A DNA stretch of 44,644 nt from positions 1 through 44,644 of IMG/VR virus record IMGVR_UViG_2563366806_000004; one strand, given 5' to 3'. Source of the DNA: a virus. Taxonomy: Duplodnaviria > Heunggongvirae > Uroviricota > Caudoviricetes. The translations under genes and the position numbers were made by a program. Of this stretch, positions 5,656-42,766 are shown one piece after another (position 1 is the stretch's first letter; the number at the start of each line of letters is the position of its first letter). The notes under the pieces were generated by a model, which was not told the DNA's origin, did no database searches, and was given only the letters and a program-made list of their open reading frames with translations.

Positions 5656-5816
5656 ATCGCATTCAGATGTTTGTTTTGATTTACTGACGGAAAAGAATTT
5701 CTCTTAAGCAATTCCTCTCTCGATGGCATTGGCTTTACGCGTTGGCGAATAATCATTTCTGCCGGAAGAATGCCGGGATTGTATGCAAGTCCTCTCATGG
5801 TAAATTCCTCAGTCAT
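5634..5816 (-). CDS. Small hypothetical protein (start uncertain)
   Basis: 60-aa reading frame from internal ATG whose start overlaps the stop of the upstream 98-aa gene (ATGACTGA); alternative longer ORF 5634..5981 overlaps that gene. Confidence 0.3.
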
Positions 5817-6105
5817 TACTGATAGCGCCATAGCGTGAGCGGTAATTACGCAGGCGCGGGTCGATATATTCAGGGAAGTGGGTATATGTGGCTTTGCGGA
5901 ATGGTCGGATTGATGTCTGGTAAATTCGCTCGCGTTCTTCTTTCTCTGCAAGCCATATACAATGGCGAAATTCCTTTTCATCTTTCGTTTCCTGCGGTAG
6001 AGACATTATCTGGTCGTAGTTTTTCCTGAATTTATCCAGCACCTCCGATACGGAATTGCCGGAACAGCGGCGCGGGTCATCCGCACCATACTGAGGCGCT
6101 GGCAT
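5809..6105 (-). CDS. Hypothetical protein
   Basis: 98-aa ORF in leftward operon. Confidence 0.45.
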
Positions 6106-6118
6106 GATTTTCTCCTGA

Positions 6119-6598
6119 TTAAATTGCGTGAATAGCGTGACGAGGGAAGGGGAGAGTTACTGGCTCCTCGTCTGGGTAGATAGGTTTGTTATGTTTGTGC
6201 CACTCGACATGACATGACTTGCAGAGCCACATCACATCGGTTGGTTTACTGTAGTCGCAGTGGTGCGCCTGTGGTTTACATTCTGATCCGCAGCACTCAC
6301 ATTGTGGTGGTCGGATTAGCTTACCGTCGCGCAAAAAATTACCCACAATGATGTGGGCTTTTCTTTTCCATGGGTTGCTCTGAATGAACCGATTTTTGGC
6401 TGCGTTACACCGTTCTCTTCCGCGTTCCGATGATTGATATTCTCTCCTTGCTGATACTCGATGTGGCAATCCAGCGCGTTCTTTGTCGTATTCAGCCAGG
6501 CAAGCCCGGCAAGCGGCAGTTAATCCATCTCTGGATGCTCTTCTGATTTGAAAGTCCCTTTCTTCCTTCTGTTGATGGCATCTTGAGCAGATTTTCAT
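6119..6598 (-). CDS. HNH-motif endonuclease-like protein
   Basis: 159-aa ORF with Cys-rich N-terminus and C-terminal HHCDYSKPTDVMWLCKSCHVEWH HNH-type motif. Confidence 0.55.
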   Translation of the reverse strand: MKICSRCHQQKEERDFQIRRASRDGLTAACRACLAEYDKERAGLPHRVSARREYQSSERGRERCNAAKNRFIQSNPWKRKAHIIVGNFLRDGKLIRPPQCECCGSECKPQAHHCDYSKPTDVMWLCKSCHVEWHKHNKPIYPDEEPVTLPFPRHAIHAI

Positions 6599-6607
6599 AT
6601 TCAGCTC

Positions 6608-7081
6608 CTAGAACGGAATATCCGAATCGTCGAAGTTCATAGGTGGTTCGCTGTGATCCCCCTGCTGCTGAGGTTGCTGTCTTTGTTGCTGACCGCTATT
6701 TCGCTGAGGAGAAGACTGTTCATTGCCTCCTTGCTTGCCACCAAGCATTTGCATGGTTCCACCAACGCCCACGATGACTTCGGTAGTGAACCGATCCTGT
6801 CCGCTTTGATCCTGCCATTTTCTTGTCCGCAATTTGCCTTCAAGATAAACCTCAGAGCCTTTTCGCAGATATTCGCTGGCAATTTCTGCCAGTTTCCCGC
6901 TCATTACCACGCGGTGCCACTCCGTCTGCTCCTTTTGCTCTCCAGTTTGCTTATCACGCCATTGTTCTGACGTAGCAACTGTAAGGTTTGCAAATGCCGT
7001 TCCTGATGGTGAATATCTGATTTCTGGATCATGCCCAAGGCGACCAATAATGATCACCTTATTTACGCCTCTGCTTGCCAT
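6608..7081 (-). CDS. ssb: Single-stranded DNA-binding protein
   Basis: 157-aa [26 protein letters not shown]...TEWHRVV...DIPF; closely resembles E. coli SSB including the acidic C-terminal tail. Confidence 0.9.
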
Positions 7082-7789
7082 TTATGCCGCCTGTTTTAGT
7101 TCGTTAACTCTGATGTTCATTACCTGAACGCATTTAGCCTGCGCCTCCTCGTTGCCAGCCATTAATTGCCAGTCACGCTGATAACGCTCGATGAGTTTTT
7201 TCTTGTCAGTTTCTGTTGACGCATAATCGCTGAAGTCTTTCAGGATTTGTTCGCAGTCAACCGATGGAGATTTCTGGTTGATATTTTCTGGTGATGGTTT
7301 GTTATCTGATGCTGGGATTGCCCATCCCGGAAGCGATGGAGGGAGCCAGTAAAATCCTGTTCCATCTTTCAGTTTTGCCCTGTGCCATCCCTGCTTTTTA
7401 TCGAGAGATGTTTGTGCGAAACCTTCCTCAAGGTTATACAGATACCGACCGATTCCCCACTGAACGGCAGCGCGCTTCATTGCACCGGAACGACCACCTT
7501 TGACGGCTTCTACCTGCGTGTTTTCAGCAGCATCCCATTTGGTTACCCATTCGGAATCAATCTTGATTGATATGCCGCATTCAACTCCGCCGTTGTTGGG
7601 AATATCGCGGTATTCATTGCGCCATCCTGCTTTGCCGCAAACATCGTCCAGGCGTTTCATGATTGCCCGGTTCGTGACATAAGCCAGCACCATAGCCCAC
7701 ACCTTGCCATCGCGTGTTTTACCGCTTTGCTGTATTCGCCATTCGATATCTTCAGGGCTGAATGGCTCATCGAATTTATTCAAATCCAT
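7082..7789 (-). CDS. Rad52/Sak-like single-strand annealing protein
   Basis: 235-aa ORF; region GGVECGISIKIDSEWVTKWDAAE...GAMKRAAVQWGIGRYLY resembles Rad52-family annealing proteins; occupies the position of lambda bet. Confidence 0.55.
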   Translation of the reverse strand: MDLNKFDEPFSPEDIEWRIQQSGKTRDGKVWAMVLAYVTNRAIMKRLDDVCGKAGWRNEYRDIPNNGGVECGISIKIDSEWVTKWDAAENTQVEAVKGGRSGAMKRAAVQWGIGRYLYNLEEGFAQTSLDKKQGWHRAKLKDGTGFYWLPPSLPGWAIPASDNKPSPENINQKSPSVDCEQILKDFSDYASTETDKKKLIERYQRDWQLMAGNEEAQAKCVQVMNIRVNELKQAA

Positions 7790-7797
7790 AATTCACC

Positions 7798-7986
7798 TCA
7801 GAATGGTAATTCGGATGGGGAGGAAAGAAATTCGCGCTCATTCATGCGCTCTCTTTGTGCTTGCCATAAACAAAGTTGTTTCTTTGATTTATCTCCCGCT
7901 TTACGCCAGTAACGAGCCTCAGCAATGTGATATTCTCTTTTTAATCGACTTAACTCTGGAGTTTTCGCCAGCTCTACCGGAATCAT
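7798..7986 (-). CDS. Hypothetical protein
   Basis: 62-aa basic ORF between the annealing-protein gene and the kil-like gene. Confidence 0.4.
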   Translation of the reverse strand: MIPVELAKTPELSRLKREYHIAEARYWRKAGDKSKKQLCLWQAQRERMNEREFLSSPSELPF

Positions 7987-8096
7987 TTAGACCTCCATTT
8001 TCTGTAGGCTTCGACGGCCTCACGAAACATCTTTTCATCGCCAATAAAAGTGGCGATAGTGAATTTAGTCTGAATAGCCATAAGTGTTTTATCCAT
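7983..8096 (-). CDS. kil: Kil-like host-killing protein
   Basis: MDKTLMAIQTKFTIATFIGDEKMFREAVEAYRKW closely resembles the lambda Kil N-terminus (MDQTLMAIQTKFTIATFIGDEKMFREAV); an in-frame upstream ATG at 8186 would give a 67-aa form. Confidence 0.55.
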   Translation of the reverse strand: MDKTLMAIQTKFTIATFIGDEKMFREAVEAYRKWRSK

Positions 8097-8259
8097 TTTT
8101 TGGAACTCTTGGCTGATTAAGTACGTCGATGAGTCGTTTCCATCCGTCACGTAATTTACGGGTGATTCGTTCAAGTAAAGATTCATTTAGTTGGAAGGCA
8201 CCCATGCGAGCGCCTCCCGCGATTGCGTAAATCATGGGTGGTTCCTTATGTTGGTTTTA

Positions 8260-9228
8260 TTAGTAGGTTATTTTTGTTGCGAATACTTCGCCTTTTACGA
8301 TGGCTGTTATGATATTTTTAGCAACATCTTCTGATGCGCCAACCTTGATAAGGTCAGCAAGTATTTTGTTATTTACTTCTTTCCGGTGAGCTTTATCCTT
8401 TGCTCTACGCTCTTCTTCTTCCTTGATTCTTTTTTCTTCTGCTATTCTGGCTTGCTCTTTTGCTTCAGCCTCGCGCCGGATTCGTTCAGCCTCCTCCTGT
8501 GCTTTTCGGCGTTCTGCTTCAATTGCCGCCTGCTTTTCTCTTTCAGCTCGTTCTGCTGCCTCTTTTGCTTCGCGCTGTGCTCGTTGCTCGGCTTCAATGC
8601 GTTCACGCTCTGCACGTTCCGCTGCGGCCTTAGCTTCTGCTTCTCGCCTTGCTGCTGATTCAATTTCGGCTTTTGCCTTTGCTTCGGCTTCTGCTCTGGC
8701 TTTCTCTTCAGCTTCTCTTTTTAAGCGTTCTTCATGCTCTCGCTTTTCCTGCTCCGCTTTGAGTCTTGCCTCTTCTCTTTGGCGGTCAAATTCGCGATCC
8801 ATCAAAATAGCTATTTCATGATCAGACTCAATTTGCTTTGCGAGAGCTTCAGCTGCTGCCTTAGCTTCTTCTTCGGCTTTAATCCGCGCCTGTTCCTCCT
8901 CATAATCAGTAAGAGGCTGGCGAGCCTTGGCTTTCAGTTCATCAAGGCGATCGCGCACTGTCTTGCGGTTGGCATCAATTAGCTTTGGAATTTCCTTCAG
9001 TTCAGCAACAAGGTCTTTGCCAAGACCATCGAGATATGTTTTCGTCTGCGCAACTTTATACGCCAGAGAAGCGATCTCCTTTCTGCCCTTTGCCGTTGTG
9101 ATATCAGGCACAAAGGACATAACTTCACGTTCAACCTTTTGAAGGATTTCTTCAATCTGGTCTGCAGACTGAAATACAGTCATTGCATTTGCTTTTTCAA
9201 TAAAAACTAAGTCTGTTACTTCACTCAT
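8260..9228 (-). CDS. Lys/Ala/Glu/Arg-rich coiled-coil protein (TolA-like repetitive helical region)
   Basis: 322 aa from ATG at 9228 preceded by GGAGGA; the track ORF extends to 9282 but would run through a terminator hairpin; ~170-aa low-complexity stretch of EAKAKAE/ERAERE repeats. Confidence 0.6.
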   Translation of the reverse strand: MSEVTDLVFIEKANAMTVFQSADQIEEILQKVEREVMSFVPDITTAKGRKEIASLAYKVAQTKTYLDGLGKDLVAELKEIPKLIDANRKTVRDRLDELKAKARQPLTDYEEEQARIKAEEEAKAAAEALAKQIESDHEIAILMDREFDRQREEARLKAEQEKREHEERLKREAEEKARAEAEAKAKAEIESAARREAEAKAAAERAERERIEAEQRAQREAKEAAERAEREKQAAIEAERRKAQEEAERIRREAEAKEQARIAEEKRIKEEEERRAKDKAHRKEVNNKILADLIKVGASEDVAKNIITAIVKGEVFATKITY

Positions 9229-9240
9229 ATATCCTCCATC

Positions 9241-9267
9241 AAAAAAATCGCCCTCACATCGGAGGGC
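9241..9267 (-). terminator. Intrinsic terminator upstream of the coiled-coil gene
   Basis: Stem GCCCTC/GAGGGC with 6-nt loop followed on the minus strand by a run of seven T. Confidence 0.55.
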
Positions 9268-9362
9268 AAAGAAGATTTCCAATAATCAGAACAAGTCGGC
9301 TCCTGTTTAGTTACGAGCGACATTGCTCCGTGTATTCACTCGTTGGAATGAATACACAGTGC

Positions 9363-9857: not shown

Positions 9858-9898
9858 TCTGTTGTTTATGCCAAAAATAAAGGCCGACTATGCGGCCT
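9858..9898. repeat. Direct repeat copy 1 (~40 bp, contains terminator hairpin)
   Basis: TCTGTTGTTTATGCCAAAAATAAAGGCCGACTATGCGGCCT, repeated with two differences at 10401..10439. Confidence 0.8.
9871..9898 (-). terminator. Intrinsic terminator after the 156-aa gene
   Basis: Stem AGGCCG/CGGCCT with loop ACTATG, followed on the minus strand by TTATTTTTGG. Confidence 0.55.
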
Positions 9899-10367
9899 AG
9901 TAGAATACCCAATTTTCTGTTTCTTGGTTGTGTCCAAAGTTATATTCAATATCTGGTGTTGATGTATCAATATTCTTCATCCCATCAACAAGAGTTGATA
10001 CAACAGCCAAATCTTGTTTGATTCTCATCAAATGGTATTTCTTCCGGCGCAATAAACTTTCAATGGCAAGTTTCTTCGTCGGGAACGCAAAAGATCTTTC
10101 TGCATTTTTTGCTACTTTCTTAATTGCATATCTATTTCTCCTTTGTTTCCATTCCTGTAACCACTGATTTGGTGCTGGTTTAAAATTAACAATCCAATGC
10201 GCAGGAACCAACCATGCATAATGCTCTGTCTGATGAAAAGCTATATATTGAAGTGCGAATATTTTGATTCCATCTTCTTCAACTGTCGCTTGGAATCTCC
10301 AGAAAACAGGCATTCCATCATGTTCAGTTTCTGATTCAGGAAAAGGTACGCTCCATGATTTTGTCAT
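9897..10367 (-). CDS. Hypothetical protein encoded by an AT-rich cassette
   Basis: 156-aa ORF with AT-rich codon usage unlike neighbours; own leader TTATTTGAGGTGAGATATG and own terminator; no recognisable motif. Confidence 0.55.
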   Translation of the reverse strand: MTKSWSVPFPESETEHDGMPVFWRFQATVEEDGIKIFALQYIAFHQTEHYAWLVPAHWIVNFKPAPNQWLQEWKQRRNRYAIKKVAKNAERSFAFPTKKLAIESLLRRKKYHLMRIKQDLAVVSTLVDGMKNIDTSTPDIEYNFGHNQETENWVFY

Positions 10368-10400
10368 ATCTCACCTCAAATAATTCAGTGCAGTGTTTAT

Positions 10401-10439
10401 TCTGTTGTTTATGCCAAAAGAAGGCCGACTATGCGGCCT
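10401..10439. repeat. Direct repeat copy 2 (contains terminator hairpin)
   Basis: TCTGTTGTTTATGCCAAAAGAAGGCCGACTATGCGGCCT. Confidence 0.8.
10412..10439 (-). terminator. Intrinsic terminator after the membrane-protein gene
   Basis: Same AGGCCG-actatg-CGGCCT hairpin as at 9881..9898, followed on the minus strand by a T-rich tract. Confidence 0.55.
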
Positions 10440-11093: not shown

Positions 11094-11426
11094 TCAATCG
11101 TAATAAGCTGGAATTGATTTTCCGCGTTGCTTCTGGCGGCCTGAGCAGGTCAACCCCATTTCACTGCGTGGCTTGCTGTACCATGTGCGCTGATTCTTGC
11201 GCTCAATACGCTGCAGGTTGCTTTCAATCTGTTCGTGGTATTCAGCCAGCACCGTAAGGTCTATCGGATTCAGTGCGCTTTCTACTCGTGATTTCGGTTT
11301 GCGATTCAGCGAGAGAATAGGGCGGTTAACTGGTTTTGCGCTTACCCCAACCAACAGGGGATTTGCTGCTTTCCATTGAACCTGTTTCTCTGCGCGACGT
11401 TCGCGGCGGCGTGTTTGTGCATCCAT
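11094..11426 (-). CDS. N: Antitermination protein N
   Basis: 110-aa ORF MDAQTRRRERRAEKQVQWKAANPLLVGVSAKPVNRPILSL, recognised as lambda N; nutL lies upstream. Confidence 0.9.
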   Translation of the reverse strand: MDAQTRRRERRAEKQVQWKAANPLLVGVSAKPVNRPILSLNRKPKSRVESALNPIDLTVLAEYHEQIESNLQRIERKNQRTWYSKPRSEMGLTCSGRQKQRGKSIPAYYD

Positions 11427-11694
11427 CTGGATTCTCCTGTCAGTTAGCTTTGGTGGTGTGGTGGCTGGTAGTCTAGCTCCAGCTTGTTGAGTCTCATTCG
11501 GAGGGGTATAACCGGCACCCCAGCGATTTTTCCATGCGACAACGTGCGCGTTATGGCGGCCTTATCGCCCGCGGCTCCCCATCTCGTCCACGCTATTGCT
11601 AGCGTTGGGAGCGCTTCACCGCTCAACAGTAGGTAAGCACTTGCCAGTGACTAGCTGGCTTCACCACACCCCAAAGCCTTCTGCTTTGAATGCT

Positions 11695-11764: not shown

Positions 11765-11828
11765 ATAATCACAAATTGTGTTCGTGCTGTCAACACGAAA
11801 TGTGATTGTTTTTATCACAACACGTGTT
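11765..11828 (-). promoter_or_regulatory. pL promoter with three operator sites (oL)
   Basis: Three 15-bp sites of form ATCACA-N3-YGTGTT at 11768..11782, 11792..11806, 11814..11828; minus-strand -35 TTGACA (11793..11788) and -10 GATTAT (11770..11765), 17-nt spacer. Confidence 0.65.
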
Positions 11829-22834: not shown

Positions 22835-23455
22835 ATGAACAGACCACACCCACCAGCGCATTTTACGATGCCACCTGACCCGAAGCCGTACATCAGCATT
22901 ATGCCCGCTAATGACGTTGGCGAGTGGCTGAATCAGCACATCCTGAGCGATGAGGGTGACCTCTACAACCCTGACCACCAGCATTTGCTTGAAGCGGATC
23001 TGTGCTTTCTCTGGGCGTCGAACGCTTTCGAGAAGAAAGGGCGTTCCGTGCTGGGGCAGGCGGAAGAAGTGGCAATGCGTGCCGGAGGCTGGCAGAAAGC
23101 GCGGATGGAGCAGCAGATGTATGAATGGTTCGGCAGGGTGCCGCATTTCATCATCACGCTCGCCGCCGATTACTGTTCGCAATGTTCCGATCTGGAGTTC
23201 TGCGCGCTGATAGAGCACGAGCTTTATCACATCTGCCAGGCGACAGATGAGTTTGGCGCGCCGAAGTTCACGCAAGAGGGGCTGCCAAAGCTGAAGCTGC
23301 GCGGCCATGACGTGGAAGAGTTTGTGGGCGTGGTTCGCCGTTACGGTGCGAGCCGGGACGTGCAGGAAATGATTGATGCGGCGAATCAGCCAGCGGAGGT
23401 TGCTCATCTCGATATTGCCAGAGCGTGCGGGACGTGCATGCTGCGACTGGCTTAA
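22835..23455 (+). CDS. Putative zinc metallopeptidase-like protein (HExxH motif)
   Basis: 206 aa from ATG 22835; HELYH motif in ALIEHELYHICQATDEF. Confidence 0.45.
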   Translation: MNRPHPPAHFTMPPDPKPYISIMPANDVGEWLNQHILSDEGDLYNPDHQHLLEADLCFLWASNAFEKKGRSVLGQAEEVAMRAGGWQKARMEQQMYEWFGRVPHFIITLAADYCSQCSDLEFCALIEHELYHICQATDEFGAPKFTQEGLPKLKLRGHDVEEFVGVVRRYGASRDVQEMIDAANQPAEVAHLDIARACGTCMLRLA

Positions 23456-23486
23456 ATACTGGACTGTATAAGACGAATGGTGATTT

Positions 23487-23960
23487 ATGGCTGCATTAAA
23501 ACCTGATGTGAAAGCCTTCATCATTCAGTCGCTTGCGTGCTATGACACGCCATCGCAGGTGGTCGAGGCTGTCCAAAAAGAATTCGGGATCAGGATCACC
23601 CGCCAGCAGGCTGAATCTCACGACCCCACGAAGGCCAGCGGTAAGACGCTCGCCAAAAAGTGGATCGAGATGTTCCACGCGACGCGCGAACGGTTCCTGA
23701 CCGAAACCAGCGACATTCCGATAGCGAACAAATCCTATCGCCTCCGCGTGCTTGACCGCATGGCAACCAAAACCGAGGGGATGAAAAACTTCTCCCTGAC
23801 GGCGCAGCTTATCGAACAGGCCGCGAAAGAGGTTGGCGACGCTTACACCAATAAGCTGAAGGTTGAGAGCACTGGCAAGGATGGCGGCCCGATCAAGACC
23901 GAGACGACCAACCTCACCGCAGATCAGGCCGCAGAGATTTACCGCAAGATGATGGGGTGA
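23487..23960 (+). CDS. Putative terminase small subunit
   Basis: 157-aa ORF immediately upstream of and overlapping the terminase large subunit gene; assignment by position. Confidence 0.4.
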
Positions 23961-25585
23961 TCATGCCTCTCCCGTTTGAATTCGATTTCAGAAACCCTGA
24001 TTACCAGATGGTTTTTGAATGGCGGATGGAGCGCTTACAGCGCATTCGCCAGAACCCTGAAATGCTGCCAGCGCTAAAGCAGTTTTATCGCACCAACCCG
24101 GCACAGTTCATCATCGACTGGGGTATGACTACTGACCCGCGTAACATCGATTATGGCCTGCCGGTCACCATCCCTTTTCTGCTGTTCCCGAAACAGGAAG
24201 AGTGGATTCACTGGATCATGGAGCGGCGCGAACGACTGGAGAACGGCATCACCGAAAAGAGCCGCGAAATGGGGCTCAGTTGGACCGCGATCGGGCTGGC
24301 CTGCTCGCTTTGTCTCTTCAACAAAGAAATGGTTATCGGTTTCGGCTCCCGTAAAGAGGAATACGTCGACAGCACCGGTGACCCGAAGGCGCTGTTCTGG
24401 AAGGCGCGAAAGTTCGTGGAAACACTGCCCATCGAGTTTCGTGGTTCGTGGGACGAGAAGAAGCATGCGCCGTATATGCGCGTTGAGTTTCCCGATACTG
24501 GCGCGGTCATCAAAGGCGAGGCTGGCGACAATATCGGTCGTGGTGACCGTACCACGCTCTACCTGGTGGATGAAGCTGCATTCCTCCAGCGTCCTCTGTT
24601 GATTGATGCGGCGCTGTCGCAAACCACCCGTTGCCGTATTGACCTGAGCTCGGTTAATGGCATGGCGAACCCGTTCGCGCAGAAGCGTCACGGCGGGAAG
24701 ATACCGGTATTCACATTCCACTGGCGGGATGATCCTCGCAAGGATGAAGAGTGGTATCGCAGGGAGTGCGAGAAAATCGACAATCCGGTGGTGGTGGCGC
24801 AGGAACTTGACCTGAACTACAGCGCATCTGCGGAAGGCGTCCTGATCCCGTCCGACTGGGTACAGGCTGCCGTCGACGCGCATATCAAACTTGGTATTCA
24901 GCCAACGGGCAAGCGACTGGGCGCGATGGACGTCGCCGACGAAGGCCGGGACAAAAATGCCTTTTCGACCCGTCACGGCTTCCTTCTGGAGAACGTGCGT
25001 GAATGGTCCGGCGTGGGCAGCGACATTTACCAGTCCGTTGAGAAGGTCTTCGGCTTTTGCGAACAGGACAACCTCGAAGAATTTCGCTTCGACGAGGACG
25101 GCCTGGGCGCTGGCGTTCGCGGCGATGCACGCGCCATCAACGAACTGCGTAACGCTGCGCGCCGACCGTCAATACTCGCCACACCGTTTCGTGGTAGCGG
25201 CGCGGTATTTGATCCGGACGATGAAGCGGTGCGCGGGGACAACGGACAGGCCGCACGCCTGAACAAGGACTTCTTCGCCAACGCCAAGGCCCAGAGCTGG
25301 TGGTGGCTACGCAAGCTTTTCCAGAACACCTATCGCGCCGTGGTTGAGGGCATGGCCTACAACCCGGACGAAATCATCTCAATCAGCAGCGCCATGGCGA
25401 GCAAAGACAAACTCATCATCGAGCTGTCGCAGCCGACCTACTCCATTAATGGCGTGGGGAAAATCGTTGTTGATAAACAGCCTGATGGCACCAAGTCGCC
25501 GAACCTCGCCGACTCGGTGATGATCAGCTACGCGCCAATGAATTCAGCCCTGAACATCTGGGAGCTGCTAGGGAGACAGGCCTGA
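23957..25585 (+). CDS. Terminase large subunit
   Basis: 542-aa ORF; ATPase Walker B-like LYLVDEAAF; followed by portal gene. Confidence 0.75.
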
Positions 25586-34906: not shown

Positions 34907-37163
34907 CGCAGATACGATTAAAGATTTCCTTGTTTCGCTGGGATTCGATATCGATCAGGCTGGCGCTAATAAGTTTGAAGCCGTGCTGAAAGGCGTTACA
35001 GCTAACGTTCTGAAGGTCGGCGCGGTGGTGGAAGGCGCAGCGCTGAGCATTGTCGGATTTACCACTCAGATCGCGAACGGTCTGGATAAAATTTACTGGG
35101 CATCCCAGCGGACGGGGGCCAGTGTCCAGGGCATCAAAGCGCTGGGATACGCCGCATCGCAAACCGGTGCCAGCGCCGAGTCGGCTATGTCCTCCCTCGA
35201 AGGGCTGGCCGGTTTCATGCGTAGCAATCCGGGCGCGGAAGGCTTCCTGAACCGCCTGGGCGTCCAGACTCGCGATGCCAGCGGAAAGATGCGTGATACT
35301 GCGGCCATCTTTACTGGCGTTGGGCAAAAGCTCAACAACATGCCGTATTACCGCGCGAAACAATACGCGCAGATGCTTGGCATCGATGAAAACACGCTGA
35401 TGGCGATGCGGCGCGGCATGAATGGCTTTACCGCCGATTACCAGTCGATGCTGCAAAAGACAGGGTTCAACGCTGATAAAGCGGCTGTTCAGTCCAACAA
35501 ATTCATGACGTCCATGCGCGGGCTTACGTCGCTGTTCGGCATCATGCGGGACAAGATCGGCTCAAACCTCGCTGGTGGCCTGGCTGGTTCGCTGGACAGC
35601 CTGCGGCGGCGCATCCTCGACAATTTCCCGAAGATTGAAGAGACGCTGACCAGAGTTATTAAAGGCGTGATCTGGCTTGCGAACGCATTCACGAGAATGG
35701 CGTGGCGGCTGATACAGGGCGCTGGCTCTGTCATCGACTGGTGGAAGCGTCTTGACGATGGCAGTAAAAATCTGCTGAAAATATTCGGTGCTCTACTTGT
35801 CGCATGGCGTCTGCTTAATTCTGCGTTCCTGAAATCCCCGATTGGAATTATCACCACGCTGATTCTGGCGATCGGATTACTCTATGACGATTATCAGACG
35901 TGGAAAGAAGGCGGTAAAAGCCTGATTGACTGGTCCAAGTGGGAGCCTGCAATAGAAAAGGCGAAAAAGGCAATTCTCTGGCTGCGCGATAAGCTTCTGG
36001 GGCTGAAAGATTCTGTTGGTGGATGGCAGAACTCGCTGGAAATTTTGGCTACTTTCATCGCTGGGGTATGGGTAACAAAAGTATTGGGAGCATTCGCAAA
36101 AATATCCGGTCTTCCGATACCTCCATGGCTTAAATTATGGGGAGCGTATGCTGGTTACCTGGTTTCAGATCGTGAAAACATAAAAGCCAGTGCTAAATCA
36201 TCTTTGGACTATACCAAAAGGAACATTGGTGATGCTCTTGCTACGGTTGGCATCAAAACCGACCTTGGGCGAAAAGATGTTAGCGAGGTAAGAGAATGGC
36301 CCGCATGGATGGATTGGCTGCATGGTGGCCCAGGTAAGATTATTCGTCAGGCGCAAAGCAATGGCGTCGTTTATGGCGATAATGTTCAGCCTGACATTCC
36401 CGGGGCGGAACAGCATGTTCGTAGTAATGAAATTGCCCCGCATGAAAGAGATGAAATAAAAAACCGTCAGCAGGCTGCTAATGGTTATCTTGAAAAAATC
36501 TCAGACGGGATTGCCAAAATCGGTAATTTATTTTTCTCCCCGGCTGGAGCTGCTGAAATCTCTCCAAATATATCGGGTGACCCCTCCCAGTTTGCGCAAT
36601 CAGTCAAACGTCCACAGGCCACAGCCCAGGGCAAAGTATTGCTCGACTGGATGGGGCCAATGTTCAATAAACTTGAGTCGCTTTATCAACTTCCAGCTGG
36701 TCTATTGAAAAGTGTGGCGATAACCGAGTCAGGTGGTAACCAGTTCGCCATGTCCGGCGCAGGCGCGAAAGGTCTGTTTCAGTTTATGGATGGTACGGCG
36801 CGCGACATGGGCCTTCGCGGAAACGATGTATTCGACCCGCAAAAGTCAGCTCAGGCCGCAGCTAAGTACCTCAGCCAGCTGTTGCGGCAGAACGGCGGAG
36901 ACCTTAGCAAAGCACTGGCATCATATAACTGGGGGATCGGGAATGTTAAGCGCTATGGCATGGGGTTAATGCCGCAGGAAACGCGTAACTACATTCCGAA
37001 AGTAATGAGCAACATGCCCACCAGCGCCCCGGTGATTCAGCAGGAAACGAATATTAACATCCACGGCGTTTCCGATCCGCGCGAGGCTGCCCGTTTGACT
37101 GTTGATCGTCAAAAGGGCGTGAATTCACAGTTAACCCAGCAACTCCCCGCAGGACCGAGATAA
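34896..37163 (+). CDS. Tail tape measure protein with C-terminal lytic transglycosylase (SLT) domain
   Basis: 755-aa ORF after the frameshifted chaperone; C-terminal AITESGGNQFAMSGAGAKGLFQFMDGTARDMGL...YNWGIGNV resembles the SLT domain. Confidence 0.65.
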   Translation: MSGNADTIKDFLVSLGFDIDQAGANKFEAVLKGVTANVLKVGAVVEGAALSIVGFTTQIANGLDKIYWASQRTGASVQGIKALGYAASQTGASAESAMSSLEGLAGFMRSNPGAEGFLNRLGVQTRDASGKMRDTAAIFTGVGQKLNNMPYYRAKQYAQMLGIDENTLMAMRRGMNGFTADYQSMLQKTGFNADKAAVQSNKFMTSMRGLTSLFGIMRDKIGSNLAGGLAGSLDSLRRRILDNFPKIEETLTRVIKGVIWLANAFTRMAWRLIQGAGSVIDWWKRLDDGSKNLLKIFGALLVAWRLLNSAFLKSPIGIITTLILAIGLLYDDYQTWKEGGKSLIDWSKWEPAIEKAKKAILWLRDKLLGLKDSVGGWQNSLEILATFIAGVWVTKVLGAFAKISGLPIPPWLKLWGAYAGYLVSDRENIKASAKSSLDYTKRNIGDALATVGIKTDLGRKDVSEVREWPAWMDWLHGGPGKIIRQAQSNGVVYGDNVQPDIPGAEQHVRSNEIAPHERDEIKNRQQAANGYLEKISDGIAKIGNLFFSPAGAAEISPNISGDPSQFAQSVKRPQATAQGKVLLDWMGPMFNKLESLYQLPAGLLKSVAITESGGNQFAMSGAGAKGLFQFMDGTARDMGLRGNDVFDPQKSAQAAAKYLSQLLRQNGGDLSKALASYNWGIGNVKRYGMGLMPQETRNYIPKVMSNMPTSAPVIQQETNINIHGVSDPREAARLTVDRQKGVNSQLTQQLPAGPR

Positions 37164-37777
37164 TGGATATTTTATCAGCGATTTTTCGCCAGCAATCCCG
37201 GCGAATTGGAATATTAATCCCCAGCGTGGTTGTTTCTGAAAAGCATTCTGATGCGCTCGAAATTACTGAGCACCCGGTGGAGAAGCCAACAACGAATAGC
37301 GCTTCGGGCTTCATCGCCGATCATGCGTATAAGCGCCCAAGCGAAGTCACGATGGAATGCGGCTTCGCTGGTGGCGGTTCATTGCTGGACTTCATTGATA
37401 CATCGTCAATCGGCCTCAGCGCCGGACTTAGCCCGAAAGAGACATACCAAAAGCTGCTGGATATGCAGCTTGAGCGCGTACCGTTCGATGTGGTTACCGG
37501 GAAGAGGGTGTACACCAATATGCTGGTGCGTGCCATTGAGGTGACGACCGATAAAACCAGCGAGAACGTGCTGAACTGCACGCTTACCCTGCGTGAAGTG
37601 ATCATGTCGCAGACATTTAAAAAGCAGGTCGCAGATAAGTCGGATATGCAGGATGGTGTCAGTACGTCAGCAGTGCAGAATTCCGGGACGAAATCGGTTA
37701 CATCGGTGAATGATTCGCTCTTGGGGCAGGTCACGGGTGCGAGTAAGGTTGGCGGACGTTATCAGTTACCTTTCTAA
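37163..37777 (+). CDS. Putative tail/baseplate protein
   Basis: 204-aa ORF, ATGA overlap with the tape measure gene. Confidence 0.4.
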   Translation: MDILSAIFRQQSRRIGILIPSVVVSEKHSDALEITEHPVEKPTTNSASGFIADHAYKRPSEVTMECGFAGGGSLLDFIDTSSIGLSAGLSPKETYQKLLDMQLERVPFDVVTGKRVYTNMLVRAIEVTTDKTSENVLNCTLTLREVIMSQTFKKQVADKSDMQDGVSTSAVQNSGTKSVTSVNDSLLGQVTGASKVGGRYQLPF

Positions 37778-37787
37778 TGAGGTTTAT

Positions 37788-38093
37788 ATGCAGTTTAACG
37801 AAATACCGCTTTCTCCTGACAATCAGCAGTTCCGCGTTTTGCTGGGCAATACCACCTATACGCTCAGGATCATCTGGCGCGATGCGGCTGGCTGGATCAT
37901 GGACGTGATGGATAGCGGCGGTGCTGCGCTTCTTTCTGGCGTACCTCTACTGACCGGCGTGAACCTTTTACGACAATTTCCACAGCTTGGCATTGATGGT
38001 GCGCTGGTGGTGGCTACCGATAAGGGGGCACCAGACGAACCCACCAAAACCAACCTCGGCACATACAGCCACCTTATTTTCGTACAGGAGTAG
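37788..38093 (+). CDS. Putative tail/baseplate protein
   Basis: 101 aa from ATG 37788 with RBS upstream (track ORF begins at 37710). Confidence 0.4.
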   Translation: MQFNEIPLSPDNQQFRVLLGNTTYTLRIIWRDAAGWIMDVMDSGGAALLSGVPLLTGVNLLRQFPQLGIDGALVVATDKGAPDEPTKTNLGTYSHLIFVQE

Positions 38094-38095
38094 AA

Positions 38096-39157
38096 ATGTC
38101 TCTTAACTGGATGCGCCATTTTGAGCTGCAACTGTTGGACCAGAACGGGCAGGGCGTTTCCCTGTCTGACTTTAAGGTCACGTTCCAGATCGAGTGGGCA
38201 GACACACGCTGGCCGCGCGTGGCGAACGTGAAAATTTACAACCTTTCGACCGATACCACGAACAAGATACTGGGGCAGGAGTTTGCAAAAATTCGCATCA
38301 TTGCCGGGTATGACGGTATTGCGCCGGATGTTGATGCGAGCCAGGTTGGTGTCGCCCGGGAGATTTCACCAGACCAGGTAGGGCAGGTGAACGGTCAGAA
38401 CTACGGCCTGATATTTGACGGTGATATTCGCTTCACCGTCACCGGGAAGGACAACATTACGGATTCCTGGGTGCTGATTCAGGCCATCAGTAACCACGAA
38501 GCGTTCCTCTACGCGACTACCATCACCACGCTTGCCGCTGGCTATACCGTTGCGGATCTGCACCGGGCGACGATGCAGGATTTCAACGCGTTCGGCGTGA
38601 CGCAGGGCATTACCGGCGACTTTCCTGATACTGTGTTTCCTCGTGGCCGCGCGATTTACTCATCCACCCGTAACGTGATGGACAATATTGCTGCGCAGTG
38701 CAAAGCGACATGGCAGTTAGTGGATGGGCAGGTGCAGATGGTGCCGGAGGATAAATACATTCACGAAGCCATCGTGCTGAATGCCGATACTGGCCTGATC
38801 GGTATGCCGCAACAAACGATGGGCGGCGGAGTAAACGTGCGGTGCCTGATAAACCCAAACATCCGTATTAATGGTCTTATCCAGCTCGATCAGGCTTCGG
38901 TGTACCGCGCCGCGCTCGGCAATAGCGAAATCGCACAGTCGCCCGGGCGTATCACCGAAACAGAAGAGAACGGCAACCGTGTGCTGACCGGCACGACGTC
39001 ACAGGCTGCCAGCATTGCGACGGATGGCGTTTATATCGTCAAAGCTATCGACTATACTGGCGACACCAGAGGTCAGGCGTGGTACATGGATTTGATGTGT
39101 TTTGCGCGTGGCAGCCGCGATTTGCAGAGTAACGCATCACTTAACCGGACGTTTTAA
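38096..39157 (+). CDS. Putative baseplate hub-like protein
   Basis: 353-aa ORF in tail operon. Confidence 0.4.
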   Translation: MSLNWMRHFELQLLDQNGQGVSLSDFKVTFQIEWADTRWPRVANVKIYNLSTDTTNKILGQEFAKIRIIAGYDGIAPDVDASQVGVAREISPDQVGQVNGQNYGLIFDGDIRFTVTGKDNITDSWVLIQAISNHEAFLYATTITTLAAGYTVADLHRATMQDFNAFGVTQGITGDFPDTVFPRGRAIYSSTRNVMDNIAAQCKATWQLVDGQVQMVPEDKYIHEAIVLNADTGLIGMPQQTMGGGVNVRCLINPNIRINGLIQLDQASVYRAALGNSEIAQSPGRITETEENGNRVLTGTTSQAASIATDGVYIVKAIDYTGDTRGQAWYMDLMCFARGSRDLQSNASLNRTF

Positions 39158-39160
39158 AAA

Positions 39161-39511
39161 ATGAAAAAACTCATCCTGATGATTGCTTGCAGCTCTTTTG
39201 TCTTGGCGGGCGTGGCTCATGCTGATTCCCAGTGTGGGCCTTTCCACTTGGGCACGAGCCCGACAAATGATGGATGGGCACGCATTAACGGTGCGAAGCC
39301 TGAAAGTCAGAAGGTAACGTTCCTTAAGCAAAAAGAAGACTACGAGAACATTAAGATGGAATGGCGCATGGCTACTGACCAGCCTGGAAGATGGGTTGGT
39401 CTTGAGTACATCAAGCGCAACGGCAAAGCCATTCTCAACGCACAGTGGTTGCAAGCCAGCATGGATGCGCCGCGTCAGTATGCAACATACGACTGCGTGA
39501 AGGTGAAATGA
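39161..39511 (+). CDS. Secreted small protein (accessory gene inside the baseplate operon)
   Basis: 116-aa ORF with cleavable signal peptide MKKLILMIACSSFVLAGVAHA-DS; two Cys in mature part; no structural-protein features. Confidence 0.55.
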   Translation: MKKLILMIACSSFVLAGVAHADSQCGPFHLGTSPTNDGWARINGAKPESQKVTFLKQKEDYENIKMEWRMATDQPGRWVGLEYIKRNGKAILNAQWLQASMDAPRQYATYDCVKVK

Positions 39512-39540
39512 TGATCCGCATCCTTAAACATCAATAATCG

Positions 39541-39583
39541 TTGATCTCGCGTTTTTATTATGCACTAATCTGTACATGTACAG
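39541..39583 (+). promoter_or_regulatory. Putative promoter and palindromic operator of the toxin-antitoxin operon
   Basis: Perfect 14-bp palindrome CTGTACATGTACAG at 39570..39583 overlapping candidate -10 TAATCT (39566..39571) with -35 TTGATC (39541..39546). Confidence 0.5.
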
Positions 39584-39593
39584 AGAGGGTGCC

Positions 39594-40007
39594 ATGAAAA
39601 TCATTACTTACACGCAAATGCGATCGGATTTATCTGCAACGCTGGACTGTTTACGCTCTGGTGAAAGCGTCACAGTTACGCAGCGCGGAAAGCCCGACCT
39701 TGTCATCAGTGCAAAATCAGTTGATGAAATCGCTTCCGCAGATGAGGTAAAAACATCTGCGAAAACAATAGACACGCATCTTGCGCAATTAATTGCATCG
39801 AATTTGTCACCACAGATAACGGAGGGTGTCATGAAGCTTACTAAGCAATTGGATGCCCTTCTTCAGTCTGATGAGGCTCGCCAGACTATGATGAAGGCCA
39901 CTAATGCAGCAGTTGCTTTGCAGGGCGTGTCTGAGTCATTTATCAAAGCTCTGCAACATACTCAGACCAAGCATGCGGACATCATAAAAAAACTGGAAGA
40001 TAAGTAA
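39594..40007 (+). CDS. phd: Phd/YefM-like antitoxin with extended C-terminal region
   Basis: 137 aa from ATG 39594; N-terminal MKIITYTQMRSDLSATLDCLRSGESVTVTQRGKPDLVISAKSVDE resembles Phd/YefM; stop overlaps doc start. Confidence 0.6.
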   Translation: MKIITYTQMRSDLSATLDCLRSGESVTVTQRGKPDLVISAKSVDEIASADEVKTSAKTIDTHLAQLIASNLSPQITEGVMKLTKQLDALLQSDEARQTMMKATNAAVALQGVSESFIKALQHTQTKHADIIKKLEDK

Positions 40008-40414
40008 TGACTGAGATTACATTCCTTTCGGTAGATGAGGTCATCGCTATTCAGAAGAGCACATTGCCAAATAGCGGACAACCAGACCGGGGAAAACTCG
40101 AAGGTGCCCTCAATCGCGTCGATAACTTACGCATGTATGAAGGATGTGAGGATTTATTTAAATTTGCAGCTATGTACATGGTTGCGATAGCGAAGTCTCA
40201 CGCTTTTAATGACGCCAATAAGCGAACGGCTTTCCAGGCCGCCAGCGTGTTTTTGCTTTTGAATGGCTATGAACTGAATACCTCAATGGAGTTAGTCAAG
40301 CTGACCATCTTTGCTGCTACGGGAGAGGCCGACTGCGATAACACTGCTTTGGCGCTTAAACTTTTGTCAGATTATAAGAATGAGCTGCTGGCAGATACGA
40401 TAACTGGCTACTGA
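40007..40414 (+). CDS. doc: Doc (death-on-curing) Fic-family toxin
   Basis: 135-aa ORF; HAFNDANKRTAFQAASVFLLLNGYEL resembles the P1 Doc Fic-like motif (HIFNDANKRTALNSALLFLRRNG). Confidence 0.75.
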   Translation: MTEITFLSVDEVIAIQKSTLPNSGQPDRGKLEGALNRVDNLRMYEGCEDLFKFAAMYMVAIAKSHAFNDANKRTAFQAASVFLLLNGYELNTSMELVKLTIFAATGEADCDNTALALKLLSDYKNELLADTITGY

Positions 40415-40437
40415 TAGCAAAAAGTAAATTGTACACA

Positions 40438-40461
40438 ACCCGCCGCCGAGCGGGTTTTTTT
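40438..40461 (+). terminator. Intrinsic terminator after doc
   Basis: Stem ACCCGC/GCGGGT, loop CGCCGA, followed by TTTTTTT. Confidence 0.6.
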
Positions 40462-40472
40462 ATGGAGTTTTT

Positions 40473-41213
40473 ATGCCAATTCCAACTCAATCACAGATCG
40501 GCGGCGAGCAGCAGACCGCGCAGGCCATAGCCGATTCGGTGTCTACCCAGATGCGCGTAGCGATGCCAGGCATCATTCAGTCGTTCGATCCTGACGCTGT
40601 AACCTGCACAGTAGAAGTGGCGCTTCGCGGTATTGTTGGCGACGGCTCCACCGAATTAAAACCGCTGGTGGATGTTCCTGTCATCTTCCCGCGCGGCGGC
40701 GGCTGCACGCTGACCTTTCCGGTTAAAGAAGGCGACGAGTGCCTGCTGCTCTTTGCCGACCGTTGCATCGATTTCTGGTGGCAGAGCGGCGGCGTGCAGG
40801 AGACCGTCGACCCGCGCCAGCATGACTTATCTGATGCGTTCGCCATCGTTGGCCCACAGTCGCAAGCACGGAAAATCAGCGGTATCAGTACCAGCGCCGC
40901 GCAGCTGCGAACCGATGATGGTGCGGCGTTTGTAGAAGTCGCCGCAGGACATAACATCACCATTAAAACACCGGGCCAGCTTACAGCTACGGCTGAAGGT
41001 GGAACGACAATCACATCCCCGACTATCACGCTGAACGGCAACGTAACGATTAATGGCAACTTGTCTCAGGGAATGGGCGAAAGCGGCGGTACTGCGACGA
41101 TGCTTGGGCCGGTGACGGTAACGAATGACGTAACAGCTTCTGGTATCAGTGTCGCCACGCATAAACATGGCGGAGTACAGACTGGCGGGGGAACTACCGG
41201 AGGGCCGCAATAA
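40473..41213 (+). CDS. Baseplate central spike protein (Gp138 N-terminal-domain-like)
   Basis: 246-aa ORF; LVDVPVIFPRGGGCTLTFPVKEGDECLLLFADRCIDFWW resembles the Gp138_N domain; C-terminal Gly/Thr-rich repeats. Confidence 0.5.
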   Translation: MPIPTQSQIGGEQQTAQAIADSVSTQMRVAMPGIIQSFDPDAVTCTVEVALRGIVGDGSTELKPLVDVPVIFPRGGGCTLTFPVKEGDECLLLFADRCIDFWWQSGGVQETVDPRQHDLSDAFAIVGPQSQARKISGISTSAAQLRTDDGAAFVEVAAGHNITIKTPGQLTATAEGGTTITSPTITLNGNVTINGNLSQGMGESGGTATMLGPVTVTNDVTASGISVATHKHGGVQTGGGTTGGPQ

Positions 41214-41566
41214 TGCGATACCGTCGCGAAGATACTGAAGGCGATTACACTTTCGGCCAGGGTGACGATACTTTCCTTATCGACAGTCCGGAATGTGTCG
41301 CCCAGGCCGTAAAAACCCGTTTCGAGCTGTGGCGCGGTCAGTGGTTTCTCGATCTGACGGAAGGCACGCCGTATGTTCAGTCAGTGCTTGGGAAGCAGCG
41401 ATCAGATGTCTACATCCTGGCTATACGCGAACGCATACAGGATACACCGGGCGTTCTGTCGATTCTTTCCTTCGATACCAATTATGACGGCACCAGCCGA
41501 CGCGTCACTTTCACTTCCTCCATTGACACAATCTACGGCCAGACGACTGTAAAAAGCGAGGCATAA
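41213..41566 (+). CDS. Putative baseplate protein
   Basis: 117-aa ORF between spike and baseplate-J-like genes, ATGA overlap. Confidence 0.4.
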   Translation: MRYRREDTEGDYTFGQGDDTFLIDSPECVAQAVKTRFELWRGQWFLDLTEGTPYVQSVLGKQRSDVYILAIRERIQDTPGVLSILSFDTNYDGTSRRVTFTSSIDTIYGQTTVKSEA

Positions 41567-42766
41567 ATGGCTTTGAACCTCGACACGCTGGGGCTATCGG
41601 CAACGGTAACCGCCCAGGGGATTAGTGCGCCTGATTACCAGACAATCCTAGATACACTGACCAGCTATTTCAGGCAGATTTACGGTAGTGATGCCTACCT
41701 CGAACCAGACAGCAAAGACGGGCAGATGGTCGCGCTGGTGGCTCTTGCCGTGCATGACGCTAACAACACCGCTATCGGGATCTACAACTCTTTTTCACCG
41801 ACGACAGCGCAGGCCGCAGCGCTTAGCAGCAATGTGAAAATTAACGGGATCACGCGAAAAGTAGCGACAAACTCTACTGCTGACCTTCTGTTAACCGGTA
41901 CGGCAGGCACGACTATCACGAATGGCTCCGCACGGGATAAAAACGGCATTATCTGGAATTTTCCCGCAAGTGTAGCGATCGGCGTTGATGGTACTGTGCT
42001 GGTGACGGCCACATGTGCGAATAGCGGTTCGGTTGCTGCGATGGCCGGGACTATCACCACCATTAATACACCGACTCGCGGCTGGGTGTCGGTAACCAAC
42101 CCGGCTGCGGCTACTGTCGGATCACCAGCTGAAACCGACGCAGAGCTGCGCATTCGGCAGGGGCAAAGCGTCGCGCTACCATCGATCACACCGTTTGAAG
42201 GTGTCGACGGTGCAATAGCTAACGTTGCTGGCGTGACACGTCACAAGTTGTATGAGAACGACACAGGAACAACAGACAGCAACGGGCTGCCGCCGCACTC
42301 AATTTCCGCCATCGTCGATGGTGGGGATGTTACCGAAATAGCCCAGACCATCAGGGGGAATAAAGGACAGGGAACGGCAACCTACGGGACAACTTCTGTC
42401 ACGGTGCCGGATACTTATGGTAATCCTCACGTCATCAGTTTTTCGCGCTCTACCGACGTACCGATTTTCGTAGCCATTACCCTGAAAGTTTTTACCGGGT
42501 ATACCTCTCAAATCGGCGAGCAGATCAAACAGGCTGTTGCCGACTATATTAATGGCCTGACAATTGGCGACGACGTTCTGCTGAGCCGTATTTATTCCCC
42601 GGCAAACCTCGGCGTTGTGAGCGGCGGGAATGCCCGCTATTACGATATTACCGACCTGCTGATCGGTAAGTCGTCTGGCAGCGTATCGGCATCAAACATT
42701 GATATTGCCTATGATGCTTCAGCGTTCTGTAGCACCGCGAATATCAGTATCACGGTGACCTCATGA
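41567..42766 (+). CDS. Baseplate J-like protein
   Basis: 399-aa ORF in the position and size expected of baseplate J; followed by tail fibre genes. Confidence 0.45.
   Translation: MALNLDTLGLSATVTAQGISAPDYQTILDTLTSYFRQIYGSDAYLEPDSKDGQMVALVALAVHDANNTAIGIYNSFSPTTAQAAALSSNVKINGITRKVATNSTADLLLTGTAGTTITNGSARDKNGIIWNFPASVAIGVDGTVLVTATCANSGSVAAMAGTITTINTPTRGWVSVTNPAAATVGSPAETDAELRIRQGQSVALPSITPFEGVDGAIANVAGVTRHKLYENDTGTTDSNGLPPHSISAIVDGGDVTEIAQTIRGNKGQGTATYGTTSVTVPDTYGNPHVISFSRSTDVPIFVAITLKVFTGYTSQIGEQIKQAVADYINGLTIGDDVLLSRIYSPANLGVVSGGNARYYDITDLLIGKSSGSVSASNIDIAYDASAFCSTANISITVTS

Follow-up and report, generated by a model that had tools for sequence, protein, structure and literature searches.

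According to the classification of 325 lambdoid phages by Zheng, Casjens, Davidson, Amundsen and Smith (2025, Genome Res; PMC12315714), the ES18-type recombination (Rec) module consists of an anti-RecBCD protein, an SSB, a nuclease and a single-strand annealing protein (SAP) and occurs in 25 phages, and the HK75-type module, listed for 27 phages in their Table 1, has no nuclease. A module of this kind had already been sequenced in phage Sf6 in 2004; other points of comparison are erf-arf-abc1-abc2 of P22 and gam-bet-exo (Red) of lambda. Here we analysed the corresponding cluster in a stretch of 44,644 nucleotides (nt), the virus record IMGVR_UViG_2563366806_000004 (the window; all coordinates are whole-window positions unless another locus is named). 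The cluster lies on the minus strand and holds cIII, kil, a small gene called orf62, the gene of a 235-residue annealing protein, ssb, a gene for an HNH-motif protein that we call X, and abc2 (Table 1). We are highly confident that it is the Rec module of an early-left (pL, N-antiterminated) lambdoid operon of the Sf6/ES18 type, working by the general mechanism outlined below. An earlier sequence-only reading suggested that X may act as a partner nuclease of the annealing protein and was probably wrong on this point. Judged from sequence comparisons, X is most likely not part of the recombination machinery and may be a homing endonuclease that has settled at the ssb 3' end; we hold this reading, and the whole explanation that includes it, at a probability of about 0.5.

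The arrangement itself is not new, as it matches Sf6 genes 25-32 (AF547987, Casjens et al. 2004) and the ES18-type class; to call it a module swap is a correct reading of well-known lambdoid mosaicism that adds nothing new. In Sf6, the order is the same (abc2, gene 26, ssb, the Rad52-type 'erf-like' gene 28, kil, cIII), and the DNA is 98.3% identical over window positions 5795-7806 and 98.2% identical over 8134-9362 (98.3-98.5% for genes 25-28). The segment 7806-8134, comprising orf62 and most of kil, is not Sf6-like; here the window has the ES18/epsilon34-type segment instead, which also matches Bas106. Megablast of the module gave identities of 98.9% to Bas106, 98.2-98.5% to Sf6 and IME10 and 97.7% to N7, and, of 5,426 complete E. 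coli genomes, 100 had the full-length module and 2,151 had parts of it. One gene of Bas106 (N7 and IME10 are also related) is lacking in the window, a 561-bp DnaQ-like exonuclease gene that stands between X and abc2. Its 182-residue product is a DnaQ-like 3'-5' exonuclease (PF16473, 2.9e-73; locus L001, 3523-4071), and the corresponding place in the window is the gap 6105-6119.

With the ES18 type, the window shares a contiguous early-left set, Abc2, an SSB-1-type SSB and the 235-residue annealing protein (according to Zheng et al., PMC12315714), and its order abc2-X-ssb-SAP, downstream of a pL-like promoter, N, cIII and kil, is that of the class if X is taken as the nuclease. The two differ in the nuclease: ES18 gp47 is an HNH_3 protein resembling T7 gp7.7 with no detectable similarity to X, and the idea that the ES18 'HNH' is the same protein as X was rejected. 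At present X is either classed among the Rec-module nucleases or goes unannotated in RefSeq, and a homing origin of such genes is not discussed in those parts of Zheng et al. (PMC12315714) that we draw on.

X was found behind ssb in all sampled genomes, whatever the annealing protein (Rad52, ERF, Sak4 or an exonuclease-linked recombinase) and whatever the downstream gene (abc2, a helicase, an exonuclease or a regulator). We quantified this linkage in the 80 best of roughly 576 IMG/VR matches to X. In 76 of the 80 loci, an open reading frame (ORF) with an acidic ..[IVLM]P[FW] tail stopped at most ~100 nt upstream of X, and three of the four others have no upstream sequence; the background of acidic-tail ORFs at the same loci was 1.4% (36/2,524). 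Once the tail was removed, the upstream proteins fell into about ten clusters not linked by BLAST, which include canonical SSB, HK620-type SSB-2, several small families and a 395-residue protein. X proteins that are 70-85% identical to one another sit behind three unrelated SSB types: those at loci L067/L072 and L078/L085/L086 share the tail plus an extension (DFDSEIPF[LR]PL..AGA), and that at L071 (SSB-2 type) ends in DDQIPF with no extension. Because the tail-coding DNA is the only element common to all upstream genes, we infer that it is the homing or cleavage site of X. By extension, the members of the Sf6 gp26 family might be free-standing HNH homing endonucleases that home to the DNA coding for the universally conserved acidic tail of SSB (...DFDDDIPF), a proposal to which we give slightly less than even odds. 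A comparison of the tails themselves (DFDDDIPF as consensus at X-less loci, variants at X-bearing loci) was discarded, since that consensus had itself served to fetch the X-less set.

X is dispensable for a module of this kind: HK75 and epsilon34 have equivalent modules without it. When these were compared with the window, Sf6 and Bas106, the boundary between presence and absence of X was sharp: the joint directly follows the IPF codon of ssb and lies 45 nt ahead of the X stop codon. The SSBs of HK75 and epsilon34 end in ...PPMDFDDDIPF followed by APVTLPFPRHAIHAI; X in the window finishes with the same last 14 residues, and the 45 nt at the DNA level are the same too. This identity accounts for a remark in the Sf6 annotation, according to which 14 contiguous residues of gp26 also occur in an E. 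coli SSB. Comparable extensions beyond IPF occur in distant X-less proteins from Vibrio phiV039C, Hafnia Pocitis76 and a Klebsiella Mydovirus, and at locus L013 X comes after a retained SSB extension (extension loci: L021, HK75, 1017-1523; L020, epsilon34, 1556-2062; L031, 442-990; L032, 472-990; L033, 1-987; L013, 3555-4025). As distant SSBs carry such extensions with no X directly after the IPF codon, the extension appears native to SSB; X would then have been inserted directly after the IPF codon in the Sf6 lineage, where it reads into the old ssb end.

Other ssb ends beside X are scarred. Duplications of 10-13 nt covering the IPF codons were found in Vibrio K68 and Klebsiella VLCpiS13b. 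In Vibrio phage D60 (L028, 2360-2420), a 9-nt stop-bearing insertion splits the tail, so that ssb ends ...DFDDD-RS-stop and is followed by an in-frame DIPF-stop; at least seven Vibrio phage genomes of the D60 group have an X match with the same statistics (52.2% identity), the ssb end being read in D60 only. What occupies the X slot varies from phage to phage: X, X plus the DnaQ-like exonuclease, the exonuclease alone (which takes the place of X in epsilon34, g341c and mEpX2), HNH_3 (ES18 gp47), abc1, or nothing. HNH_3 genes (I-HmuI/T7 gp7.7-like) that are unrelated to X also lie at Rec-module junctions, namely at the Rad52/ssb junction, ahead of erf, and behind ssb (L005, 4060-4527; L013, 2442-2909; L022, ES18, 876-1397), which suggests that such modules are hot spots for homing-type genes.

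The protein itself is Sf6 gp26 with a single residue changed. Aligned with one another, 36 homologues showed an N-terminal CxxC...CxxC zinc ribbon, then helical repeats, and an invariant C-terminal block CxxC...AHHCDY...WLCxxCHxEWH. The HNH motif noted in the sequence-only reading is borne out. Profile searches returned no HNH family: X matched nothing in Pfam (noise only at E<=10), NCBIfam or the PDB by phmmer and profile search, and Foldseek against PDB structures gave no significant match. The only profile match was PHROG 2340, 'endonuclease'. Tblastn found the X family in 532 phage records. X is 35% identical, over 84% of its length (E 3e-20), to I-KsaII, encoded in the polA intron of a Staphylococcus Kayvirus, and family copies also occur in the replication modules of virulent phages, for example between primase/helicase and DNA polymerase in a Chaseviridae phage. 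X thus belongs to a nuclease family with mobile members.

Database entries hide much of this family. Homologues are named 'hypothetical protein', and the intact 159-residue ORF is unannotated in RefSeq (E. coli PI24; L023, 7308-7787) and in the GenBank record of N7 (L019, 1017-1496). Because the Prokaryotic Genome Annotation Pipeline (PGAP) omits it, abc2 and ssb of RefSeq E. coli genomes seem to be separated by an 'empty' gap of 500 bp. N7 and IME10 were considered as X-less phages and rejected as such, as both have the gene unannotated. Many database 'homologues' are deletion fusions with ssb or the DnaQ-like gene (P0011, P0014, P0025, P0051, P0060 and P0063), and a 90% protein cluster in which X is mixed with 'SSB' names proved to be an artefact of such chimeras bridging both.

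A free-standing homing gene beside an SSB gene has a precedent in T4, where segG adjoins and targets gene 32, the T4 SSB gene (PMC2988022). X resembles the seg and mob genes of T4 in being promoterless, co-oriented with its neighbours and wedged beside a conserved DNA-metabolism gene. It differs from SegG, a GIY-YIG enzyme, in being an HNH protein and in occurring mainly in the Rec modules of temperate phages. We found no description in the literature of a link between a homing endonuclease and the ssb tail.

The partner role proposed in the sequence-only reading, that X is a genuine Rec-module endonuclease or nickase working with the annealing protein and SSB, has to be weighed against these data. 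X could, for example, be brought in by the SSB tail to generate ends, introduce nicks or act on branched intermediates, filling the slot of Exo. Its position directly behind ssb in modules with Rad52-, ERF- and Sak4-type proteins and with Abc2 or MuGam-type end protection would fit such a role, as would catalytic-type residues that are invariant among homologues only 33-89% identical, and surveys treat such HNH genes as probable module members and describe annealing protein-ssb-HNH orders that recur (PMC12315714, PMC8093625, PMC6316719). The tight packing of X in the operon with no promoter of its own has been counted in its favour too; free-standing homing endonuclease genes are typically promoterless and oriented like their neighbours (PMC2988022), so this packing favours neither reading. 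Resection, on the other hand, would already be supplied by Abc2-modified RecBCD (according to PMC5928155), the equivalent HK75-type modules lack X, and the slot is filled elsewhere by an unrelated DnaQ-like 3'-5' exonuclease, an HNH_3 gene or abc1. The linkage of X follows the tail codons of ssb across protein families, with scars and an insertion inside the ORF, and its relatives are intron-encoded or lie in virulent-phage replication modules. HNH enzymes are not known to be processive 5'-3' exonucleases. Linkage to the ssb end, X-less equivalent modules and an intron-encoded relative together make the partner nuclease the weaker reading, and we regard it as unlikely, though well short of negligible.

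Several points weigh against homing. The activities of these proteins are deduced from sequence, and the proposed cleavage target is deduced solely from its being the one element that the upstream genes have in common. X is kept, with invariant catalytic-type residues, in many Rec modules of three annealing families (Rad52, ERF and Sak4). Phages often retain gene order by function despite family swaps, and such functional synteny could mimic the linkage; non-orthologous replacement of ssb could likewise produce the picture of similar X proteins behind three SSB types. In principle, HK75 and epsilon34 could have lost X by an in-frame deletion, in which case theirs would not be the empty site. 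The order (exonuclease)-annealing protein-SSB-HNH also recurs in SPP1 (34.1-35-36-36.1) and in staphylococcal phages (Sak3/Erf-ssb-HNHc_6) (PMC6316719, PMC8093625), where the HNH proteins are of other subfamilies (I-HmuI-like and HNHc_6), X matching no Pfam HNH model.

The same linkage data would also fit a domesticated weapon, one that cuts ssb or further targets in the DNA of co-infecting phages or in the host chromosome, with the carrier benefiting through marker exclusion or host takeover and homing being secondary. The tail-coding sequence is common to the ssb genes of the host and of rival phages, and HNH endonucleases of Skunavirus phages show marker exclusion (PMC12724721). Sequence data cannot tell this apart from simple homing, and we consider it improbable.

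If homing on tail DNA is true, it would explain why, among phages of Enterobacteria, Vibrio and other hosts, X directly follows tail-bearing proteins of about ten unrelated kinds, and it would account for the scarred ssb ends beside X and for the last 14 ssb codons having been swallowed by X in Sf6-like phages. The 'nuclease' of many annotated annealing protein-SSB-HNH modules would then be an ssb parasite, not a recombination factor, and surveys that find recombination partners by adjacency would need correction. X might also cut the ssb genes of the host or of rival phages. It would be a new example of a selfish element that takes advantage of a short motif among the most conserved in bacterial DNA metabolism. 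The association of the gp26 family with the ssb tail deserves experimental follow-up.

The other components of the module agreed well with what had been read from the sequence. An ORF check placed the genes on the minus strand at the expected positions. For the full-length SSB, PF00436 matched residues 6-105 (1.1e-38), TIGR00621 scored 181 bits against a cut-off of 53.95 (E 1.7e-53), and E. coli SSB structures, including 1eqq, matched at 1e-63. By these matches it is a full-length protein of the bacterial type, with OB fold, linker and the acidic tail NFDDSDIPF. As a separate observation, the extended class of proteins mentioned above, which comprises phage SSBs and a 406-residue non-SSB protein of the Klebsiella Mydovirus, runs ~15 residues beyond ...DDDIPF with the conserved motif AP[VI]GL.YGR..[IL]H.I. 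Partners of E. coli SSB bind the carboxylate of the terminal Phe, which an extension of ~15 residues would bury. We know of no previous description of an SSB extension beyond IPF.

A profile search with the 235-residue protein returned PF04098 (Rad52/Rad22-Sak) over residues 4-136, with 91.9 bits against a cut-off of 20.3 (E 5.1e-26), and all listed homologues carry this domain. The core has a Rad52-type fold. The earlier assignment as a Rad52/Sak-like annealing protein was thus confirmed by the search that the sequence-only reading had named as able to refute it. BLASTP aligned its C-terminal 79 residues with P22 Erf residues 134-205 only (63% identity, 2e-30). An ERF-type N-terminal domain is absent, with no PF04404 match and no BLASTP alignment outside the Erf C-terminal domain. 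By these comparisons, the annealing protein is a chimera of a Rad52-type core and the P22 Erf C-terminal domain. In the AlphaFold2 (AF2) model, the latter forms a separate three-helix bundle (helices within residues 179-234) behind a disordered linker, and it is presumed to be a partner-interaction domain. Among public proteins, the Erf-type C-terminal domain occurs on both ERF-type and Rad52-type cores. The underlying census used a 70-residue query; an exhaustive search of representatives gave 16 matches, including a spurious Ig-repeat protein (P0097), which is enough only to show the domain on these two cores, and a search of a large collection gave fragments only. The protein is a clear case of a swapped partner domain, a kind of shuffling that Zheng et al. 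(PMC12315714) name as unanalysed. Between the core and the C-terminal domain lies a three-stranded element (GWHRAKLKDGTGFYWLPPSLPGWAIP; 7310-7414, minus strand, residues 126-160) with invariant W148, P151, W156 and P159; its likeness to WW domains is weak (PRP40, E 0.12-0.14, not significant).

Abc2 was unambiguous, with PF11043 at 202.7 bits against a cut-off of 25 (8.3e-61), 91% identity to P22 Abc2 and a match to PDB 8b1t, 'Anti-RecBCD protein 2', at 2.5e-55. Abc2 is reported to hijack RecBCD and convert it into a 5'-3' resecting enzyme (Murphy 2000, as given by Hutinet et al., PMC5928155) and to bind RecC and block activation by Chi (Zheng et al., PMC12315714), and by analogy it is the functional counterpart of lambda Gam. 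The absence of gam, bet and exo noted in the sequence-only reading holds by homology (tblastn with lambda Gam, Bet and Exo found no homologue across the 44.6 kb, best E 0.34, 0.83 and 0.43), but it misleads, in that the anti-RecBCD role is filled by Abc2 next door. With RecBCD converted to resection by Abc2, no replacement for Exo is needed, and the role of Gam is covered.

We infer the mechanism, like all biochemical activities and the homing target discussed above, from characterised homologues. Abc2 would bind RecC and turn host RecBCD into a Chi-blind resecting enzyme, so that the phage would need neither Exo nor Gam. Phage SSB would then cover the resulting single-stranded DNA, its acidic tail assisting the cognate annealing protein; SSB is described as stimulating its cognate annealing protein (PMC5928155). 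The Rad52-type core would anneal complementary strands, and the Erf-type C-terminal domain would presumably touch a partner. X would stay outside this machinery as a promoterless free-standing homing-endonuclease gene behind, and here inside, the 3' end of ssb.

Compared with P22, Abc2 (91%), the C-terminal domain of the annealing protein (63% to that of Erf) and the operon position correspond, whereas nothing in the window corresponds to the Erf N-terminal core, Arf, Abc1 or P22 Kil; the Rad52-type core, SSB and X are present instead. Orf62, whose equivalents are ES18 gp50, epsilon34 gp37 and Bas106_0035, was considered as Arf and ruled out; it shows no similarity to P22 Arf despite its position. 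Compared with lambda Red, the position downstream of cIII-kil and the overall task are equal, and Kil, cIII and N are lambda-like; resection, though, would be by Abc2-modified RecBCD (as may be gathered from PMC5928155) and not by Exo with Gam-inhibited RecBCD.

The junction with lambda lies in kil. Kil matched PF06301 with 74.6 bits against a cut-off of 27.6, and tblastn with lambda Kil residues 1-34 gave 91% identity followed by a divergent C-terminus, in agreement with the lambda-like N-terminus described earlier. The 67-residue kil ORF quoted in the sequence-only reading overlaps cIII; the true start is almost certainly its M31 (8096), giving 37 residues and an overlap with cIII of 8 nt, and kil is annotated at 114 nt in Bas106, ES18, epsilon34 and RefSeq. 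DNA homology to lambda within the module is restricted to 7994-8184. Its edge at 7994 equals lambda 33228, 4 bases inside gam (start codon at 33232), and on this alignment 7994 is the mosaic breakpoint, at the position of the lambda gam start codon. No second junction with lambda was found, the downstream sequence being P22-like instead (abc2 plus orf56, 84%). The clear mosaic junction and the module swap relative to lambda claimed from the sequence are therefore real; the description was incomplete, as Abc2, the chimeric annealing protein, orf62 and the cIII overlap had been missed.

The genes of the cluster are tightly packed, with spacers of 9 nt (ssb/X) and 13 nt (X/abc2), the annealing-protein stop abutting the ssb ATG (0 nt) and the kil stop overlapping the orf62 start (ATGA). 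A consensus scan gave no promoter-like site within the cluster, and the pL-like promoter upstream of N should drive the leftward early operon that holds the module.

Table 1. Positions of the module genes and associated features in the window (aa, amino acids)
Feature	Positions	Strand	Description
cIII	8089-8235	-	48 aa; overlaps 5' part of long kil ORF; 75% identity to lambda CIII, 74% to P22 C3
kil	7983-8096	-	37 aa from internal ATG; PF06301 4e-21
orf62	7798-7986	-	62 aa; P22 arf position; phrog_1723 1.6e-33
annealing protein	7082-7789	-	235 aa; Rad52-type core plus Erf-type C-terminal domain
annealing protein core, Rad52/Sak-type	7382-7789	-	aa 1-136
annealing protein C-terminal three-helix domain	7082-7321	-	aa 157-235; homologous to P22 Erf C-terminal domain
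ssb	6608-7081	-	157 aa; OB fold, Gln/Gly-rich linker, acidic tail NFDDSDIPF
X (Sf6 gp26 equivalent)	6119-6598	-	159 aa; predicted Cys4 zinc ribbon, helical hairpins and C-terminal HNH (beta-beta-alpha-Me) domain
X end, last 14 codons and stop (PVTLPFPRHAIHAI, stop)	6119-6163	-	insertion/deletion joint; window/HK75/epsilon34/Bas106 comparison
abc2	5809-6105	-	98 aa; anti-RecBCD protein 2; PF11043 8.3e-61
lambda DNA homology block	7994-8184	not applicable	93%; blastn vs lambda 27000-36500
pL-like promoter TTGACA-17-GATTAT	11765-11793	-	predicted; consensus scan match
lambda-type N gene	11109-11459		93% identity to lambda N

At its left end, the window has a ybhC-like pectinesterase lipoprotein gene (1-1284, running off the end) followed by a lambda-type integrase gene (1419-2489), which identifies the element as a lambdoid prophage at att-lambda. 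This location beside a ybhC-like gene, and the many X relatives in databases that are deletion fusions with neighbouring genes, could be taken to mean that the cluster is an inactive remnant of a decaying prophage in which no mechanism operates. We consider this very improbable: none of the seven ORFs is disrupted, their coupling is tight, and they share 98-99% identity with the genes of Bas106, Sf6 and N7, phages that form plaques, and the rest of the window holds complete early and late regions that match phage genomes. In its early region the element is similar to P22-like phages (Bas106 and Sf6, for example), in its late region to Citrobacter phage Omnitron and SEN34-like phages; with int and N of the lambda type added, it is a composite.

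Chi sites (GCTGGTGG) were found at 22850-41734, ten on the top strand and six on the bottom strand, all in the late region of 55% G+C; the early region has none. These counts are far above the chance expectation of ~0.7 per strand. Such abundance is unusual for a phage encoding Abc2, the ES18 type having 0-5 top-strand sites according to Zheng et al. (PMC12315714). A terminator-like hairpin (AGGCCGCATAGTCGGCCT plus a T run) occurs twice, at 9858-9898 and 10386-10439, both copies matching lambda 34041-34087 beside ral. The copies flank a segment of 39% G+C with a 156-residue ORF (9897-10367), which, lying between duplicated boundary sequences, looks like a moron-type insertion. Just upstream of cIII, 8260-9282 (minus strand) encodes a 340-residue, coiled-coil-like protein rich in Glu, Ala, Lys and Arg, the equivalent of Sf6 gene 33 ('similar to D3 orf53'), which PGAP names 'TolA'.

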